From IMG/VR virus record IMGVR_UViG_3300005264_000006, positions 1,831 through 65,830 of that record: a stretch of DNA of 64,000 nt; one strand, written 5' to 3'. This DNA is from a virus. Taxonomy: Duplodnaviria; Caudoviricetes. Below are positions 1 through 7,385 of the stretch, in pieces. Within the stretch, counting starts at the first letter, position 1. The number at the start of each line of letters is the position of its first letter. The position numbers and the translations under genes were made by a program. The notes below the pieces were generated by a model. That model was given only the letters and a program-made list of their open reading frames with translations. It did no database searches and had not been told where the DNA came from.

Positions 1-2124
1 GATAAAAACGGAACAGTTTACCAAAGAGCGAATTTGATTGAGACACCGATGGGTTTTTTTAGGAAAGATATAGAATCGGTTAATAAGAAAAAATTTATGA
101 AGTGGCTTGACTTAAGAGTAAAGGCACAGAACATGGCTAAATCGTACTTAAAAGCAAGAAAAACCATTGAAGATCCAATGTATAAATTACTAGATGGCAA
201 GCAATTTCGAATCAAAACATTCACGAATGGAGGATTCGGTATCATGGGTTTACCGGCAGATAGGAATTATTCAAAGTTCATTTTCAACAACACGACTCTC
301 ATGTGTCAGGATTTAACTAAGAAAATGATGTCAGTTTTGAAAGAACTTGAATATGTTGTCGTTGGAGGGGACAGTGTTACTGGTGATACTCCATTGCTTT
401 TAAAAAAAAATGGAATAATTGAAATAAAAACAATAGATGAAATTGCTACATGGAATAGAAAAACTCAAAGGAAAGAATATGGAGAATGTGAATATGAGGT
501 TTGGAGTGAAAATGGTTTTACAAAAATAAAACAAGTTATAAGACACAAAACTAAGAAAAAAATATTTAGGGTTTTAACACATTGTGGTTGTGTTGATGTT
601 ACAGAAAATCATAGTTTGTTAAACGAAGATAATAAAAAAATAAAACCTTCTGAACTTATAATTGGTAATCATTTATTGTATTCTTTTCCAGAAAATTTTC
701 CCGAAACTAAAAATGAATTAACTATTGATGAATGTTGGTTGATGGGTTTGTTTTATGCAAACGGAACTTGTGGCAAATATGAATATAAATCTGGAACAAA
801 ATATCAATGGAATATAAGTAATGCAAATTTAGATTTATTAAAAAAAGCTAAAAAAATAATTCCAAATTCAAAAATATTAAATACAAGAAATTCTTCAGTT
901 GTGTATAAGTTAGTGCCAACAAAATCAATAAAAAAAATGTATTTAAAATATAAATGTTTTTATAATAAAGGTTACAAAACAATACCAAAAATCATTCTCA
1001 ATTCTTCTTATGAAAAGAGAAAAGCATTTTTTGATGGTTATTATGTGGGAGATGGTAATAGAAAATGGAGAGGAATTAGATGTGACAATAAAGGTAAAAT
1101 TGGTTCAATGAGTCTATTTTACTTGATGAAATCATTAGGATATAATGTTTCAATAAATACAAGAAAAGATAAACCAAATATTTTTAGATTAAACGGAACA
1201 TTAAATAAATTAATAAAACAAGAAGGAGAAATAAAAAAAATAGAAGAAATTGGAATTGTAGATGATTATGTATATGATTTGGAAACAGAAAATCATCATT
1301 TTCAAGCAGGTGTGGGAAATTTGATAGTTCACAATACCGACTCTTGTTTTGTTTGTCTTAATAGTAAAAAATTAGAAGATGCAATACAGGAAGCGACAGA
1401 ATTAGTTTCTAAAATAAACAAAATAATAGATAACTATCTTTATAGAGTTTATAATATACAAAAACACACTATGAAAGTTGGATTGGAAACTATATCGGAT
1501 AAATTCTGGGTTAAAGCAGCTAAAAATTATGTTAAAAGAAATCTCTGGAAAGATGGTTCCATTCTCGATAAACCTGAATTAGAAATAAAAGGTATATCTC
1601 AAAAAAAGAGGAACACGTCAAAATTTGTTGCTGACTTACAATCTACCATGATAGATATATTATTAAATTCTTCCAATGTAGAAGAAGATTTTAAATTACT
1701 TATGAAAGTTTTGGATAAAAATTTTGAGAAATTACCTTGGACTTATATTGCACCAAAAGGAGCAATTAATAGTGATATAGATGATTATGATATAGGTAAT
1801 AGAAATGCACGGGGAGCGAGAAATGCTCGTGAATATTTTAACAAGTATTTTAACCCGGGTGACAATCCTTACATAATGCCATTTAAACAGTTTCCTAAAA
1901 AGTTAAACGGGAAATTTGTTGCTCCTTACAAGGGAGACGTAATTGTCTTATCTTTCGATGAAGAAGATGTGGAAGAAATTAAAAGTTTAGGATTCTTACC
2001 GGATTATGAGGAATTAAAAAGAAGTCAATTAAATGAGAAATCAAAACCGTTTCTTAGTTTAATGGATACTTCTTATTATAAGATGAGAGCATTAGATAAA
2101 GTGAGCAATGATATGGAATTATGA
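1..2124 (+). CDS. polB: Family B DNA polymerase, C-terminal part (5' end outside window), intein-containing; ends in DMEL
   Basis: Frame is open from base 1. Motif B-like KQFRIKTFTNGGFG, motif C GGD|TDS split by an intein, then AKNY and EIKG motifs. Confidence 0.93.
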   Translation, partial: DKNGTVYQRANLIETPMGFFRKDIESVNKKKFMKWLDLRVKAQNMAKSYLKARKTIEDPMYKLLDGKQFRIKTFTNGGFGIMGLPADRNYSKFIFNNTTLMCQDLTKKMMSVLKELEYVVVGGDSVTGDTPLLLKKNGIIEIKTIDEIATWNRKTQRKEYGECEYEVWSENGFTKIKQVIRHKTKKKIFRVLTHCGCVDVTENHSLLNEDNKKIKPSELIIGNHLLYSFPENFPETKNELTIDECWLMGLFYANGTCGKYEYKSGTKYQWNISNANLDLLKKAKKIIPNSKILNTRNSSVVYKLVPTKSIKKMYLKYKCFYNKGYKTIPKIILNSSYEKRKAFFDGYYVGDGNRKWRGIRCDNKGKIGSMSLFYLMKSLGYNVSINTRKDKPNIFRLNGTLNKLIKQEGEIKKIEEIGIVDDYVYDLETENHHFQAGVGNLIVHNTDSCFVCLNSKKLEDAIQEATELVSKINKIIDNYLYRVYNIQKHTMKVGLETISDKFWVKAAKNYVKRNLWKDGSILDKPELEIKGISQKKRNTSKFVADLQSTMIDILLNSSNVEEDFKLLMKVLDKNFEKLPWTYIAPKGAINSDIDDYDIGNRNARGARNAREYFNKYFNPGDNPYIMPFKQFPKKLNGKFVAPYKGDVIVLSFDEEDVEEIKSLGFLPDYEELKRSQLNEKSKPFLSLMDTSYYKMRALDKVSNDMEL
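373..1335 (+). mobile_element. Intein (321 aa) with LAGLIDADG homing endonuclease in PolB motif C
   Basis: Begins SVTGDTP, block B VTENHSL, LAGLIDADG-like LMGLFYANG and FFDGYYVGDG, ends VYDLET...IVHN followed by Thr (TDS). Confidence 0.95.
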
Positions 2125-2351
2125 ATTTATACGAAGCAAAAAAAAAGAAGAAATATAAAGTAACTACAATAGATTCCGGTTTTAAAGCAAGAAATAGATT
2201 AGGAGAATTAGGTATTTTTAAAGGAGTTATAATCGAAAAGATAGAATCTATTTTACACGGTCCTTTAAAAATTAAAGTAAAAGACACAATATATGCTTTA
2301 GGTAAAGGAATATGTAAAAAAATAATGGTGGAAGAAATTGAAGATTCTTAA
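2121..2351 (+). CDS. feoA: FeoA-family (SH3-like) protein
   Basis: RLGELGIFKG...GPLKIKVKDTIYALGKGICKKIMV matches the FeoA pattern; ATGA overlap with the polB stop. Confidence 0.8.
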   Translation: MNLYEAKKKKKYKVTTIDSGFKARNRLGELGIFKGVIIEKIESILHGPLKIKVKDTIYALGKGICKKIMVEEIEDS

Positions 2352-3009
2352 TTTATTCGCAGGAATTGGCGGAAATCGTTTTTTGTGGGGTGACGAACAT
2401 GAGGTTACAGCGGTAGAACATGATGAAGAAATAGCAAAAATTTACAAAAGAAGACATAAGAGTGATGAAGTTATCATTGCGGATGCCTATGATTATTGTC
2501 TTTGGTCTTATGATAAATACGACTTTATTTGGGCTAGTCCACCTTGTCCTACACATTCCATTTGTAACAATTTTCTACACGCACAAAATATAAGAAGATA
2601 CCCCGATATGAATCTTTGGAAGATAATTATATTCTTACGTTATTATACTACCTACAACAACAATAAAATTGATTGGGTTGTAGAAAACGTGAAGACTTAT
2701 TATGAACCTCTTATTGAGCCTTCATTTATATTAGGAAGACATTATTTCTGGTCTAATGTTCGAATACCACAAAAAACTTATGAATACTCGACAATTACGA
2801 TTACTAACGCAAAAACTACTACAAGAAGAGATAATTGGAAATACTTGGAAGAGTTAGAAAATTATCTTGGGATTAATTTATTTGATGATATAAATGGGGA
2901 AAAGAGAAGACAATTATTAAGAAACTGTGTTAAACCGGAAATGGGAAAATATATACTAGATTATATAATGAATGGTTCAACAGAAGTTAGTGATGATATG
3001 GAATTATGA
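2338..3009 (+). CDS. C5-cytosine DNA methyltransferase; ends in DMEL
   Basis: Motif I LNLFAGIGG, motif IV SPPC, motif VI ENV. Confidence 0.9.
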   Translation: MKILNLFAGIGGNRFLWGDEHEVTAVEHDEEIAKIYKRRHKSDEVIIADAYDYCLWSYDKYDFIWASPPCPTHSICNNFLHAQNIRRYPDMNLWKIIIFLRYYTTYNNNKIDWVVENVKTYYEPLIEPSFILGRHYFWSNVRIPQKTYEYSTITITNAKTTTRRDNWKYLEELENYLGINLFDDINGEKRRQLLRNCVKPEMGKYILDYIMNGSTEVSDDMEL

Positions 3010-3917
3010 AAATTGGTTTGTTTGATATAGATAGTAAAATAGGAAATTTGGCTTTAATGAAATTGTCAACATATCATAAGAGATTAGGTGATGAAGTTGA
3101 GTTTTACGATCCTTTCTTTTATAAGGAATATGATAGAGTTTATGTATCAAAAATATTCTTTTATGAACATCCAAACGATAAATATATAAAAAATTGGATG
3201 ATTAAGGGTGGAACCGGTTTAGATATATATGCAAAATTGCCTTATAATGTTGAGCATATATATCCCGATTATGATTTATATGGGATTGATTATGCAATGG
3301 GTTTTATAACCCGTGGTTGTATTAGAAATTGTTCTTTTTGCGTTGTTCCTAAAAAAGAAGGAATGGTTAGAAAAAATGCCGATTACACCGAATTTACAAA
3401 AGAACAAGAGAATGTGATGTTAATGGATAACAACATTCTTGCATACAAAAATCATTTAGAAGAACTAGAAAAATTGAAATGGGAAAATACTCATAAACAT
3501 TTTGATTTTAATCAAGGATTAGACATTAGATTAATTAATAATGAAAATGCAAGAGCATTAAGAGAAATAAAAATATGGAAGGGTAAATATAGATTCTCAA
3601 TGGATCATCCAAACATGGAAAAAATTTTTGAGAAAAAAATAAAAATTCTGAATGATGCGGGTATAAGTAACGGAATACTTCGTGTGTTTTTGTTAGTTGG
3701 TTATGATACAACTCCAGAAGAAGATATGAAAAGAATACAATTTCTTAAAGAACGAAAAATAAAAGCATTTGTTATGCCTTTTAATAAATTTGACAAGTAT
3801 CAGAGTAGATTAGCAAGATGGGTTAACAGATTTTATTATGGTTATATTTCTTTTGAAGAATTTTGTGATAATTTTACCAAGGCAGATTTAAAATTTGTAA
3901 ATGACATGGAATTATAA
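3006..3917 (+). CDS. Radical SAM protein; ends in DMEL
   Basis: TRGCIRNCSFC (CxxxCxxC), MDNN, DFNQGLD; N-terminal NLALMKLS domain. Confidence 0.9.
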   Translation: MKIGLFDIDSKIGNLALMKLSTYHKRLGDEVEFYDPFFYKEYDRVYVSKIFFYEHPNDKYIKNWMIKGGTGLDIYAKLPYNVEHIYPDYDLYGIDYAMGFITRGCIRNCSFCVVPKKEGMVRKNADYTEFTKEQENVMLMDNNILAYKNHLEELEKLKWENTHKHFDFNQGLDIRLINNENARALREIKIWKGKYRFSMDHPNMEKIFEKKIKILNDAGISNGILRVFLLVGYDTTPEEDMKRIQFLKERKIKAFVMPFNKFDKYQSRLARWVNRFYYGYISFEEFCDNFTKADLKFVNDMEL

Positions 3918-4440
3918 AAATCAAAATGTTGTGAGAATAGTGGTAGATAAAGTTTTGTTTAAGTCAGAATCTATTGAATGGGGTACTCCTCAATATCTTT
4001 TTGATGAATTAAATGAAGAGTTTGATTTTGTTTTAGATTGTTGTGCTAACGAAAAAAACCATAAATGCGAGAAATGGTTTTCTAAGGAAGAGAATGGATT
4101 ATCGGTAGATTGGTTCATTTATAAAAGGGTTTTTATGAATCCTCCTTATGGAAGACAATTAAAACATTGGATGAGAAAAGCATATGAAGAATATTTAAAA
4201 GGAACAACTGTAGTTTGTTTGGTTCCGTCAAGAACCGATACTATTTGGTGGCATGATTATTGTATGAAAGCTACTGAAATTAGATTCATTAAAGGTAGAT
4301 TGACATTTGAGGGAGCTAAAAATTCCGCACCTTTTCCATCGGCAATCATTGTTTTTCAAGTAAGAGATTATCCAAACTTTTTTGGAGAAGTAAGTAAATT
4401 TATTAAGAATGATGAAGTTAGGTGCATTAGTTATGAATGA
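3901..4440 (+). CDS. Phage-type N6-adenine DNA methyltransferase (true start may be a downstream GTG)
   Basis: EWGTPQYLFDELNEEF, LDCCA, NPPYG, VPSRTDT, RFIKGRLTF. Confidence 0.9.
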   Translation: MTWNYKNQNVVRIVVDKVLFKSESIEWGTPQYLFDELNEEFDFVLDCCANEKNHKCEKWFSKEENGLSVDWFIYKRVFMNPPYGRQLKHWMRKAYEEYLKGTTVVCLVPSRTDTIWWHDYCMKATEIRFIKGRLTFEGAKNSAPFPSAIIVFQVRDYPNFFGEVSKFIKNDEVRCISYE

Positions 4441-5337
4441 ATGTATTTCGGAGGTGATAGCCAGCCTTGGGTAATTGGGTACAATCCTTATTGGGCTGGT
4501 ATTGACGGAGGTAAGTATAATTTATTAGATTATATTTTACCTTTTCCAAGACACACGACTTTTATAGAAGTATTTGGAGGTAGTTCGGTTGTTTTGTTTA
4601 ATAAAATACCTTCTCAGATTGAAATTGTAAATGATATAAATTCACGATTAATTAATTTTTGGGAGACAATTCAGAAAGCGCGAAGAGAATTTGTAGATTA
4701 CTGTAAAAACGAAGGAGGATTAGATAGTCGAGTTTTATTTGATAAATATAGAAAAAAAGCAGATAAGAAAGTTGAAGATGCTTTTCGTTTGTATTATATA
4801 AATCGTCATAGTTTTTCACAAATGAATAATGCTTATCACGGAATTTCATTTACAGGAAATGATCAATGGCATTCTCCTTATCTTAATAAGTTAGAACATA
4901 TAGACGAATATTATGAACGAATAAAACATGTACAGTTTGAATCTCAATGTTTCAGAAGATTACTTAAGAGATGTGATAGAGAAAACGCTTGTATTTATTT
5001 AGATCCTCCGTATTTTAAAGGAGGTGATATTTATGAATACATGGTTGGAGTAGAAACAAGTTGGTCTCATCAAGAATTTGTAGATTTAAGAACTTTATTA
5101 AAAGGATTAAAAAAAGCTAAGTTTGTTCTTAGTATAGATGAAAAGAATTTTTGGTTAGAAGAAATGCCGGATTTATACATACAGCCGATAGAAAGAATTA
5201 ATAATGCCTCCCTATCTATTGGAAAAGAGAAATCTAGGAGTATTGAATATGTAATTAGAAATTATAATCCAAAAACTACTCCGACCATGAGAGATTTTGA
5301 TGGCAAAAATAAAATAAAAAACGATATGGAATTATGA
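4441..5337 (+). CDS. Dam/D12-class N6-adenine DNA methyltransferase; ends in DMEL; N-terminus ambiguous
   Basis: GGK, FIEVFGGS, EIVNDIN, YLDPPY. Confidence 0.9.
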   Translation: MYFGGDSQPWVIGYNPYWAGIDGGKYNLLDYILPFPRHTTFIEVFGGSSVVLFNKIPSQIEIVNDINSRLINFWETIQKARREFVDYCKNEGGLDSRVLFDKYRKKADKKVEDAFRLYYINRHSFSQMNNAYHGISFTGNDQWHSPYLNKLEHIDEYYERIKHVQFESQCFRRLLKRCDRENACIYLDPPYFKGGDIYEYMVGVETSWSHQEFVDLRTLLKGLKKAKFVLSIDEKNFWLEEMPDLYIQPIERINNASLSIGKEKSRSIEYVIRNYNPKTTPTMRDFDGKNKIKNDMEL

Positions 5338-5654
5338 TGGGTGTTTATGATTGGTTACCTAACGGAAGTCAGGTAAAATGTTGGAAATGTAGAATGGAAC
5401 AACTTGATGTAGATTCTAAGGTAGGAAAATTAGTAGGGGAGAAAAATTATATTGTTTTATTACGGGAAGGCGGTTATGTAAAAGTTATTAATAAAAAAAT
5501 TTCTAAAATTTCTAGTCATAGAAAGAAAAAAGATCCTAAGGATTTTAAATTACCTGTTTTTGATAAATACGGAGAAATGCTTTTTAGTAAAGAAGACATG
5601 CATGGGTTATTACCCAATGAATCATATTATTATTGTGAGAGAATTTATGACTGA
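5334..5654 (+). CDS. Hypothetical protein
   Basis: 106-aa ORF with ATGA overlap; MGVYD...QVKCW N-terminus. Confidence 0.6.
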   Translation: MMGVYDWLPNGSQVKCWKCRMEQLDVDSKVGKLVGEKNYIVLLREGGYVKVINKKISKISSHRKKKDPKDFKLPVFDKYGEMLFSKEDMHGLLPNESYYYCERIYD

Positions 5655-5747
5655 AACAATTAAGTGTAAAATCATCAAAAAATAGAAGAATTAAATGAGT
5701 ATATAACTAAATTAGAAAAAAAACATGTTGAAAAAAATGTACATTGA
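5647..5747 (+). pseudogene. Probable internally deleted or frameshifted small gene
   Basis: MTETIKCK... stops at 5685; another frame reads HQKIEELNEYITKLEKKHVEKNVH-stop and overlaps the next start. Confidence 0.4.
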
Positions 5748-6465
5748 AAACCCAAAAACAAAAGGTTCGGGGATCGTGTGTGCCATCCCTCAAAAAGGAA
5801 GATGTCCTAATGAATGCGAAGATTGTTTCTTCCAATCGGGACGTTCTTATTTAGAACCTTTAGAAGAAAATTTACCTAATATGCCAGATTTAGAAGAAAC
5901 ATATGGTAGAATTGTAAGAGTTAACGATGGTAATGACAGTAACATTGATAGAACAAATGTTATGGAATCTGTAAAAGAATTTCCATGGAAATTTTACAAC
6001 ACTGCAATACCAAGAGATTTAGAAGAGTTTGAAGATCCGTTTGTTCTTACTGTAAATCCCGGTTACATGACTGATAAAAGTTGGCATAAGTTAATAACAA
6101 TTCCAAAGAACTTAATGTATGTAAGAGTAAGAACAAATTGTTGGAACTTAAATCTTGTAAAAGAAGTAGTAGAATATTACACAAAAAAAGAAGTACCGGT
6201 AATCTTAACATTCATGGCGTATTTTGACACTCCAATTCCATCTGCGCATGAGGATGATTACATATTTAGAAAGAGAACTCTTAATTCTTATAATGCTATA
6301 ACCACACAAGCATGGAGAGAAATAATGAGAATGTTTCAAGACAATCATTATGTCTATTCTTGCGGAAAGATTGAAGGAGAAAAAGGAACAACCAAATGTG
6401 CCAGGTGTGGAAATTGTATTAGAGAATATTTTGTAACATTAGAAAGGTTAAGAAATGAGTTATAA
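5725..6465 (+). CDS. Radical SAM-like Fe-S protein (start probably 5737)
   Basis: CPNECEDC (CxxxCxxC) near the N-terminus, plus C-terminal CARCGNC. Confidence 0.7.
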   Translation: MLKKMYIENPKTKGSGIVCAIPQKGRCPNECEDCFFQSGRSYLEPLEENLPNMPDLEETYGRIVRVNDGNDSNIDRTNVMESVKEFPWKFYNTAIPRDLEEFEDPFVLTVNPGYMTDKSWHKLITIPKNLMYVRVRTNCWNLNLVKEVVEYYTKKEVPVILTFMAYFDTPIPSAHEDDYIFRKRTLNSYNAITTQAWREIMRMFQDNHYVYSCGKIEGEKGTTKCARCGNCIREYFVTLERLRNEL

Positions 6466-6949
6466 TAAACGAATAGAACAAGGTTACAAAAAATTAGGTT
6501 TAAAATTAGATAAGGACGGATACGTGATGAAGAGTATTTATTTTGCCCATCCATTCGATAAATGGAATAGCAACCAAGAAAAAATGATAGAACAAATCTT
6601 AACTAAGAGAGGTTATGATGTTATAAATCCTTTTAAAAAAGAAGATAGAATAAACAAAAAATACGGAGTTAATAACTATTACGATAATCCAACATTTGAA
6701 TTTGCCAAAGAAATAATAGAAAAAGATTATGAATTGGTTAAAGAATGTGATGAATATTTTGGTTGGTTTCCAAAAGATGTCACAATGATTGGTACACCTC
6801 TTGAATTATCTTGGGCAAATTCACTAGGTAAAAAGATTACGGTTCTTTGTTATAAACCGCAACCTTTCTTATGGATGTATTCCGATATATTTTATATAGG
6901 CTATGAGAATTTTAAAAATGACGTTAGATTCTATGATAAAGAAGTTTAA
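6455..6949 (+). CDS. Nucleoside 2-deoxyribosyltransferase/N-glycosidase-like protein
   Basis: IYFAHPF, VINPF, KDYELVKECD, GTPLELSWA..LGKKI. Confidence 0.8.
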   Translation: MSYNKRIEQGYKKLGLKLDKDGYVMKSIYFAHPFDKWNSNQEKMIEQILTKRGYDVINPFKKEDRINKKYGVNNYYDNPTFEFAKEIIEKDYELVKECDEYFGWFPKDVTMIGTPLELSWANSLGKKITVLCYKPQPFLWMYSDIFYIGYENFKNDVRFYDKEV

Positions 6950-7385
6950 TGAACTTTTTGGAAAGTGTTTGGAAGAAGATAATAAAAACATGCGAGAATA
7001 TGTCATACAGGCTTCTGCTTCTAGGATAGAAGGATTAATTTCATTAGAAAAATTTTATAAAGATCATACTCCGAGAGAGAGTTTTTATAACTTTACAGAA
7101 TTACCAAAAATAATTAATAAGAAAAATCAGGTTATAGCTTTTGGTAATAGGTTTTTCCCTTTCGAAAGAGTTAAAAAAGTTTTAGAAAATTTCTTTCAGA
7201 ATGGTGTAGAAGTTGGTCTTTATCACGGAAAAGGGGTTTCGGTTCTTGTTTTTAAAATTGATGAAAATTACGGGATTATGATGGCAAATAAAAAAGATAA
7301 AAAAAAGAAAGACACAAATGAAGTATTATATAGATGGGAAGATTTATTTTTCCACAAAAATTTTGGAGACGATATGGAATTATGA
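6903..7385 (+). CDS. Hypothetical protein, weakly sliding-clamp-domain-like; ends in DMEL
   Basis: C-terminal half FPFERVKKVL...VEVGLY...VLVFKIDENYGIMMA resembles the last PCNA/beta-clamp subdomain by eye only. Confidence 0.55.
   Translation: MRILKMTLDSMIKKFNELFGKCLEEDNKNMREYVIQASASRIEGLISLEKFYKDHTPRESFYNFTELPKIINKKNQVIAFGNRFFPFERVKKVLENFFQNGVEVGLYHGKGVSVLVFKIDENYGIMMANKKDKKKKDTNEVLYRWEDLFFHKNFGDDMEL

Follow-up and report, generated by a model that had tools for sequence, protein, structure and literature searches.

A shared D-M-x-L C-terminal tail on the DNA polymerase and DNA-modifying enzymes of an uncultured virus: a predicted clamp-docking motif

Short acidic and hydrophobic peptides serve as docking codes of replication hubs, as exemplified by the C-terminal acidic tip of SSB (DDDIPF type) and the bacterial beta-clamp motif (QL[SD]LF type). 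In the excerpts of the papers cited here, the PCNA-interacting peptide (PIP) motif is given the consensus Qxx[LIMV]xx[FY][FY] (PMC6881253), archaeal proteins invariably carry this motif at their extreme C-terminus (PMC6881253, PMC3504372), and a peptide of the RFC large subunit bound to PfuPCNA is mentioned (PMC3504372). The same excerpts place DNMT1 among the PIP-motif proteins and describe contacts of p21 with the acidic C-terminal tail of the clamp (PMC6881253), report that the clamp-binding tails of T4 are interchangeable (PMC2988020), and treat PCNA-linked N6-methyladenine (6mA) methyltransferase complexes in eukaryotes (PMC11761967). The present analysis concerns a C-terminal tail, DMEL, borne by five proteins encoded in a 64,000-nucleotide window, namely bases 1831-65830 of a 65.8-kb IMG/VR virus contig (32% G+C, estimated to be 67% complete). 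With a probability of about 0.7, this tail is a lineage-specific, degenerate docking tail for the virus's own PCNA-like clamp, the binding itself being a prediction.

The DMEL peptide followed by a stop codon closes five plus-strand open reading frames (ORFs) of the window (Table 1), and all five ends stand where a preliminary description of this DNA, made from the letters alone, had placed them. The plus strand carries replication and DNA-modification genes up to approximately 22 kb, and the minus strand carries the virion genes. The tagged proteins fall into different Pfam families (PF00136 with an intein, PF00145, PF04055, and PF02086). Counts were made over the 60 window ORFs of at least 100 amino acids (aa). 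DMEL occurs five times among these 60 genes, every time as the final four residues and nowhere else in the proteins concerned, so that the uniqueness claimed earlier for these termini holds; amino-acid composition predicts 0.0005 genes with this ending. At the nucleotide level, the degenerate string GAYATGGARYT is found five times when both strands of the window are counted, compared to a mean of 0.32 and a maximum of 2 in shuffled sequence (0 of 100 shuffles reach 5), and each copy is in frame and immediately 5′ of a stop codon. The rest of the 65.8-kb contig contains no additional copy of the motif. Also correct was the observation that the codons vary synonymously around a fixed peptide: the aspartate codon is GAT in four tails and GAC in one, the stop is TGA in four and TAA in one, and the preceding codons are aat/gat/aat/aac/gac. 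A feature not remarked upon earlier is that the last leucine codon together with the stop (TTATGA) contains the ATG of the next ORF in four of the five tails.

The tail is conserved as a peptide and not as DNA, and the decisive evidence is that nucleotides and junction differ in the relatives, with the peptide preserved. The complete 99.5-kb relative G001, whose PolB part is 88% identical, has six DMEL tails that are written GAA TTA TGA (three times), GAA CTG TGA, GAG TTA TAG, and GAA TTA TAA, i.e., with all three stop codons; GAG TTA TAG is the version on its orthologue of the C5 cytosine methyltransferase. In genomes whose PolB is 59-88% identical, D-M-x-L-COOH is retained on the same orthologues with differing codons and stops, whether or not a downstream start overlaps. 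The peptide is also kept where no ORF begins at the junction (the C5 methyltransferase of G001, a 356-aa protein of G002, and the PolB of L139), and in the window's fifth copy (GAC ... TAA) the overlapping start is lost and the peptide retained. Orthologues of the 160-aa protein terminate in DMEL or DMIL, and in the D12-class methyltransferase only D, M, and L are invariant in a tail that sits behind a variable linker (alignment A5). A search for GAYATGNNNYTN followed by a true stop in five related records gave 21 matches, 20 of them in frame at the ends of real ORFs and the remaining one closing a 3-codon ORF; a control pattern read backwards gave 2. Thus, the C-termini of the contig and of related viruses yield nothing further on the contig and tails on the orthologues in the relatives, and the proposal of protein-level selection stands. 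The preliminary description had drawn this proposal from the synonymous codon variation around a fixed peptide; some of the DNA identity is due to codon bias and to the ATGA overlaps habitual in this genome.

Each virus repeats the tail of its replicative polymerase on further proteins, and between lineages the tail changes on them together. PolB homologues that are 59-69% identical end in DMIL, DMDL, DMVL, DMQL, DMML, or DMEL, and those that are 42-48% identical end in GDMMQP, GDFMDT, GDFLLI, and similar peptides. Within the DMxL clade, PolB, the D12 methyltransferase, and a protein of ~150 aa are tagged in every record, and the two complete genomes (G001 and G002) additionally tag an AAA+ protein and a second small protein. 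The variable residue x is Glu in all six tails of G001 and Ile (three tails) or Val (two tails) in G002, which means that five orthologous pairs have changed together; the tails of G004 are mixed at this position (Q, E, and I). Further afield, among 24 loci obtained from one metagenome scan, L161 ends its PolB in GDMMQP, its N6_N4 methyltransferase in GDMMMP, its D12 methyltransferase in GDMMIP, and a 196-aa protein in GDMMMP; L162 has GDMMQK on PolB and GDMMQI on both an N6_N4 and a C5 methyltransferase; L164 has GDMMNP on PolB and GDFMLI on an N6_N4 methyltransferase; and L168 has GDIMDV on PolB and GDFLDV on a C5 methyltransferase. These distant-clade tails differ by synonymous codons. A search of viral_contigs with the alignment of distant PolB sequences (A6) found no relatives.

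The fairer test of this co-variation is an unselected count over plus-strand ORFs of at least 90 aa, and it is clear at the clade level only: tails match the PolB tails of their own clade in 4/19, 5/54, 3/9, and 2/8 ORFs, and those of the other clade in none, except at L162, where 2/8 also match the DDMQL of G004. Permuting the identity of tails to the PolB of their own genome gave an observed value of 3.36 of 5 and a shuffled mean of 1.63, with 0 of 20000 permutations reaching the observed value, a result that is illustrative since the tails were picked by hand. Cultured relatives are all remote: in a set of 50,697 phage records, the top PolB matches, at ~23% identity, are haloarchaeal tailed viruses and T4-like cyanophages. 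Other conserved or variant ends were seen among the relatives. A 186-aa DPPW-type methylase of G003 (L138 4610-5170) ends in FADNGIL (gat aat ggt ata tta tga), which could represent a variant of the tail or its decayed remains. A 331-aa P-loop ATPase ends in EE[DE]LW and a 442-aa protein without a family in E[LV]TGDL (L132 14700-17323; L136 3728-6063; L139 3190-5527); these ends may be further docking tails.

The contig begins inside the exonuclease-half gene of PolB and lacks the upstream replication genes, which were therefore read in G001. G001 encodes a clamp loader (PHROG 5846, E 1.6e-40) and a 313-aa protein without a family match. The AlphaFold2 (AF2) model of the latter gives 491 Foldseek matches at E<=0.001 (best 9.4e-9), and the 50 listed are all PCNA or DnaN, at template-modelling (TM) scores of 0.3-0.4. 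As a trimer in complex prediction, the protein reaches a predicted local distance difference test (pLDDT) value of 88. Its counterpart in the window's own virus is probably P0035, which lies on a 95-kb contig. The tagged AAA+ protein (369 aa) is modeled with a pLDDT of 82, and its last 40 residues are disordered (pLDDT under 50). Its 20 best Foldseek matches in the PDB are chain A of yeast or human RFC:PCNA entries, which we take to be the large subunit Rfc1/RFC1; further RFC subunits and the T4 clamp loader rank next. By its predicted fold, the tagged AAA+ protein thus matches the RFC large subunit. Profile searches against PDB sequences were uninformative: the clamp family gave a ribosomal protein as its sole match (E 0.11), and the AAA+ pair gave P-loop-level matches only (midasin, ABC-F, and RuvB).

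The AAA+ family also offers a route from the tail to known motifs. HMMER finds 60 relatives of the AAA+ protein; of the top 30, 24 have a hydrophobic last residue behind a Lys-rich linker and 20 end in DMxL, a GDFLxI-type peptide, or Q-x-x-hydrophobic-x-x-aromatic/WL, e.g., QVDFSKWL, QTKLKGFWSV, and QSNIGDFLLI. In the AAA+ proteins of the DMxL clade, Q-x-x-[VLI]-x-x-F directly precedes x-x-D-M-x-L. The GDFL-type tail reads as a PIP-box core (I/L, G, D, F, and L), and DMxL as a further derived form in which Asp replaces the first aromatic residue, in a candidate register versus the PIP box that is ambiguous. As in T4-type and archaeal tails, the motif constitutes the last residues of all five window proteins and lies behind a linker that is variable (D12 methyltransferase) or disordered (AAA+ protein). 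Four of the five window tails have a hydrophobic residue (V, I, or F) at the seventh position from the end; the radical SAM protein has V at -6 and F at -7. The PIP-box Gln is at position 1 in neither possible register of any window tail and is present in the AAA+ protein of relatives only, and PIP positions 7-8 are D-M in the window tails, with no aromatic pair. DMEL had initially been described as matching none of the known tails; its most plausible reading is as a degenerate form of the C-terminal PIP-like and T4-type clamp tails.

Binding was modeled by co-folding the clamp trimer with the last 35 residues of the window's D12 methyltransferase, in three runs with three controls. The score was 0.58 versus 0.10 for the best control, which the tool grades as "weak support", with a contact agreement of at least 49% and a partner pLDDT of at least 42. 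Of 80 solved complexes, 58 attain the pass mark, as against 2 of 110 mismatched pairs. Seven of the 80 and both passing mismatches do so with a score no higher than 0.60. In that range a pass is false more often than true unless the pairing was already probable, and likeness to solved PCNA-peptide complexes can itself produce a pass. The preliminary description had left the shared hub open between clamp and SSB. The viral sliding clamp is the most likely hub because G001 encodes a clamp and clamp loader, the tagged AAA+ protein resembles the RFC large subunit, its homologues end in PIP-like boxes, and the co-fold gives weak support; family searches in the relatives identified no SSB or other hub.

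From these data we infer that the tail binds the clamp and that DNA modification is co-replicative. The motif can be written as hydrophobic-x-[N/D/S/G]-D-M-x-L-COOH, positioned at the extreme C-terminus and usually behind a flexible, often basic linker. Its clients on one hub would be PolB, the large clamp-loader subunit, two methylases, the radical SAM enzyme, the 160-aa protein, and the 149-aa protein of a relative. In the proposed scheme, the clamp loader, with its large subunit itself tagged, would load the viral PCNA-like ring, and PolB would attach to the ring through its tail. The other pockets of the trimer, or exchange on the ring, would accommodate the methylases along with the radical SAM enzyme and both small proteins, and the ring-bound enzymes would modify the nascent duplex viral DNA right behind the fork. 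The basic linkers (KNKIKN in one case; Lys-rich in the AAA+ protein) could touch the acidic C-terminal tail of the clamp. Between viral lineages the tail would drift, with all clients of one virus following. A more speculative extension, which we hold only tentatively, is a private "toolbelt code": viral PCNA and lineage tail would co-evolve, orthogonal to the clamp network of the host, captured DNA-modifying enzymes would have to acquire the current tail, and modification would be processive on the clamp. Such a code would cover three unrelated methylase families, the radical SAM enzyme as a recent example, and members of a hypermodification pathway.

Several observations weigh against clamp docking. 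The clamp is not on the window's own contig, and the hub is deduced from relatives. Taken alone, the model of the 313-aa clamp is of low confidence (pLDDT 50, TM 0.3-0.4 to PCNA), and the sole direct computational test of binding is the co-fold at 0.58, with no interface reported. The tail is without the canonical PIP Gln and aromatic pair, has Asp where GDFL-type relatives have Phe or Met, and has an ambiguous register. It is missing from the small clamp-loader subunit, from the PF05869 methylase of the window (which ends in ISYE), and from the G001 ORF 63082-63534, taken as RNase H-like from its opening residues. The tails within one genome are near-identical in DNA as well, which gene conversion could also yield. 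At the most divergent loci, L158 and L159, the likeness is weaker and the tails were chosen by eye, which renders the permutation test that uses those picks partly circular.

These weaknesses leave room for other explanations, one of which moves the conservation from the peptide to the nucleic acid. A 15-nucleotide DNA or RNA junction string, gatatggaattatga, would then serve as a coupling or re-initiation signal, an operator, or a recombination site, with the peptide as a by-product. Four of the five window copies are indeed the identical 15-mer GATATGGAATTATGA, in which TTATGA holds the start of the next ORF; given codon usage, the probability that at least four of five are written exactly so, TGA included, is 0.003; and accessory genes directly follow such junctions (the FeoA ORF after PolB, the radical SAM gene between two copies). 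However, codon bias (GAT 81%, GAA 87%, TTA 60%) predicts the coding part (P = 0.11 for at least four of five with the stop excluded), and ATGA overlaps are common genome-wide, ending 18 of the 60 genes. In our own reading of the sequence, GGA lies 3 nucleotides before the ATG versus roughly 6-11 nucleotides upstream for the Shine-Dalgarno-like boxes of this genome. The peptide survives GAG, CTG, GTT/GTG, ATA, and CAA codons and TAA and TAG stops. Occurrence of the string in other frames or outside genes, which the preliminary description had singled out as telling against the peptide, amounts to 0 of 5 copies in the window and 1 chance match among 21 in the relatives. An exact search of IMG/VR for the 15-mer returned single scattered matches (at least 115 stretches, one match each, with no multi-copy locus among the 80 listed); these are taken as chance, and the relatives found by protein searches are absent from them. 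A Shine-Dalgarno or coupling signal was rejected as the main explanation on account of the GGA spacing, the codon bias, the ATGA habit, and the changed junctions of relatives, and a conserved junction string is extremely improbable.

The two remaining alternatives accept the peptide and dispute its purpose. Conservation and co-variation of the peptide demand a common partner without naming which, and the tail might dock on one other than the clamp, such as a helicase, a primase, an SSB, the 331-aa P-loop ATPase, or a host factor. The weak clamp co-fold and the absence of the PIP aromatic pair speak for this view, as do the conserved EE[DE]LW and E[LV]TGDL ends, by which several tail codes may coexist in the replisome. 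Such a partner is nonetheless unlikely: the tail sits on PolB and on the RFC-large-like subunit, the two classical clamp clients, it grades into PIP-like boxes within the AAA+ family, and relatives provide no identified SSB or other hub. A C-terminal degron, which the preliminary description had also considered, or another fate signal (timed proteolysis, localisation, or packaging) on early replication and modification enzymes would suit a common terminal peptide on diverse early proteins, and the tagged genes all lie in the early/replication arm, with none in the virion arm on the other strand. Nevertheless, a fate signal leaves unexplained both the co-variation with the PolB tail across lineages and the PIP-like likeness in the clamp-loader family, and to our knowledge no virus is described as marking its own polymerase and clamp loader for destruction; we regard it as very unlikely.

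The radical SAM protein illustrates how a new client may arise. A homologue search with this protein gave 6505 matches, and among the 120 listed, the window's own protein alone ends in DMEL, so that this ending is not a trait of the radical SAM family. The gene is missing from the corresponding place in G001. Because the gene is absent there and the tail is unshared by the 119 other listed homologues, a newly captured enzyme appears to have gained the tail, whether through selection or through a recombination event at the repeated junction. Many radical SAM homologues end in L[AEV]EV, perhaps the tail of another lineage. One homologue, at 54% identity, comes from a metagenome-assembled genome named Candidatus Hodarchaeota at NCBI, and together with the haloarchaeal-virus PolB relatives it would fit an archaeal host.

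The tagged genes lie within the replication and modification arm (Table 1). The PolB of this clade is split between two genes, one for the exonuclease half (425 aa) and one for the polymerase half (558 aa) (window 1-2124; L006 7238-10792), and in G001 two ORFs of ~90 aa lie between the halves. In the window PolB, an intein (PF14890, spanning about aa 130-434 of ORF 34-2124) interrupts the GGD|TDS motif; the PolB of G001 has none, and a similar intein occurs in P0009, a PolB homologue at 61% identity. A FeoA-domain ORF at 2121-2351 (PF04023, E 1.3e-15) begins within the PolB stop codon and is not at this place in G001. Between the tagged genes, a third DNA methylase at 3901-4440 (PF05869 Dam, E 3.3e-31) is untagged; its ATG at 3901 is upstream of the radical SAM tail, which creates a 17-nucleotide overlap. 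The tagged D12 methyltransferase and the tagged 160-aa gene are separated by two genes at 5725-6949 that encode a 246-aa CxxxCxxC protein with no family match and a nucleoside 2-deoxyribosyltransferase-like protein (PF05014, E 4e-6, just under the cut-off); the two genes appear to belong to a DNA hypermodification pathway. The C-terminus of the 246-aa protein was considered as a tail and rejected, as it is RNEL in the window, KDEL in G001, and MRND or MKCE elsewhere and is therefore not conserved. Pfam, PHROG, and NCBIfam searches gave no match for the 160-aa protein and no family for the tagged 149-aa protein of a relative. In the Atlas, the 160-aa protein reaches feature scores of at most 0.81 and a structure TM of at most 0.50.

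Table 1. Tagged genes of the window and their tails (window coordinates)
Feature	Position	Strand	Details
PolB polymerase-half gene	1..2124	+	ends VSNDMEL; extends past window 5′ end; PF00136; contains intein
Tail 1, PolB	2110..2124	+	GAT ATG GAA TTA TGA (DMEL, stop)
C5 cytosine DNA methyltransferase-like, 223 aa, TTG start	2338..3009	+	ends VSDDMEL; PF00145 E 2.9e-8, N-terminal 76 aa
Tail 2, C5 methyltransferase	2995..3009	+	GAT ATG GAA TTA TGA
Radical SAM protein, 303 aa	3006..3917	+	ends FVNDMEL; PF04055 E 4e-4, below curated cut-off
Tail 3, radical SAM	3903..3917	+	GAC ATG GAA TTA TAA; synonymous Asp codon, no overlapping start
D12-class (Dam-type) N6-adenine DNA methyltransferase, 298 aa	4441..5337	+	ends IKNDMEL; PF02086 E 1.2e-23
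Tail 4, D12 methyltransferase	5323..5337	+	GAT ATG GAA TTA TGA
160-aa protein	6903..7385	+	ends FGDDMEL; family-less
Tail 5, 160-aa protein	7371..7385	+	GAT ATG GAA TTA TGA

The principle of a docking tail is known: clamp docking has precedents in T4, archaea, and eukaryotes. In the literature, supplements and subscription journals aside, we found no prokaryotic virus whose polymerase shares its clamp tail with a radical SAM enzyme and with DNA methylases, the latter belonging to three families over the clade as a whole. Should the tail dock on the viral clamp, we would have found no earlier example of a prokaryotic virus with DNA methylases and a radical SAM enzyme among its clamp clients. 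Such docking would also provide a mechanism for completing the modification of viral DNA ahead of host nucleases, as well as an example of a short linear motif that drifts with all of its clients following. The rule "ends like its PolB" would then be a cheap, sequence-only means to list the replisome clients of uncultured and metagenomic viruses, and it would include the 160-aa and 149-aa proteins.

Among known systems, SSB and the bacterial beta-clamp are the more distant comparisons. The SSB tip sits on the hub itself, whereas here the tail is on client enzymes; the beta-clamp motif has another consensus and addresses a three-domain clamp; and neither matches D-M-x-L. The tails of T4/RB69 gp43, gp55, and gp33, which bind the gp45 clamp, resemble the present ones more closely. 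Both are short hydrophobic-acidic peptides at the extreme C-terminus behind a variable linker, both are common to the polymerase and functionally unrelated proteins of one virus, and in both cases the virus (here the relative G001) encodes its own clamp and clamp loader. The T4 clients gp55 and gp33 serve late transcription, whereas here the tail marks DNA methylases, a radical SAM enzyme, and small proteins; moreover, the sequence here is D-M-x-L-COOH, PolB is ~23% identical to that of the nearest cultured relatives, and binding is predicted.

The archaeal C-terminal PIP boxes of PolB, the RFC large subunit, Fen1, and other proteins occupy the same very C-terminal position, to go by the excerpts of PMC6881253 and PMC3504372. 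Here, too, PolB and an RFC-large-like subunit carry the tail, near-canonical boxes terminate homologues of the tagged AAA+ protein, and the probable partner is likewise a PCNA-like clamp according to its predicted fold. The differences are that Gln is missing from four of the five window tails and the aromatic pair from all, that Asp and Met replace the Phe/Met and Leu/Met of GDFL-type relatives, and that two extra residues follow, ending in Leu. In addition, the clamp here is virus-encoded, and the tail varies by viral lineage. Eukaryotic DNMT1 and PCNA follow the same logic of a DNA methyltransferase with a short clamp-binding motif and of methylation that follows the fork. In DNMT1 the motif is internal, canonical, and embedded in a long disordered region, whereas here it is terminal and degenerate and is carried by several unrelated methylase families in a virus of prokaryotes.

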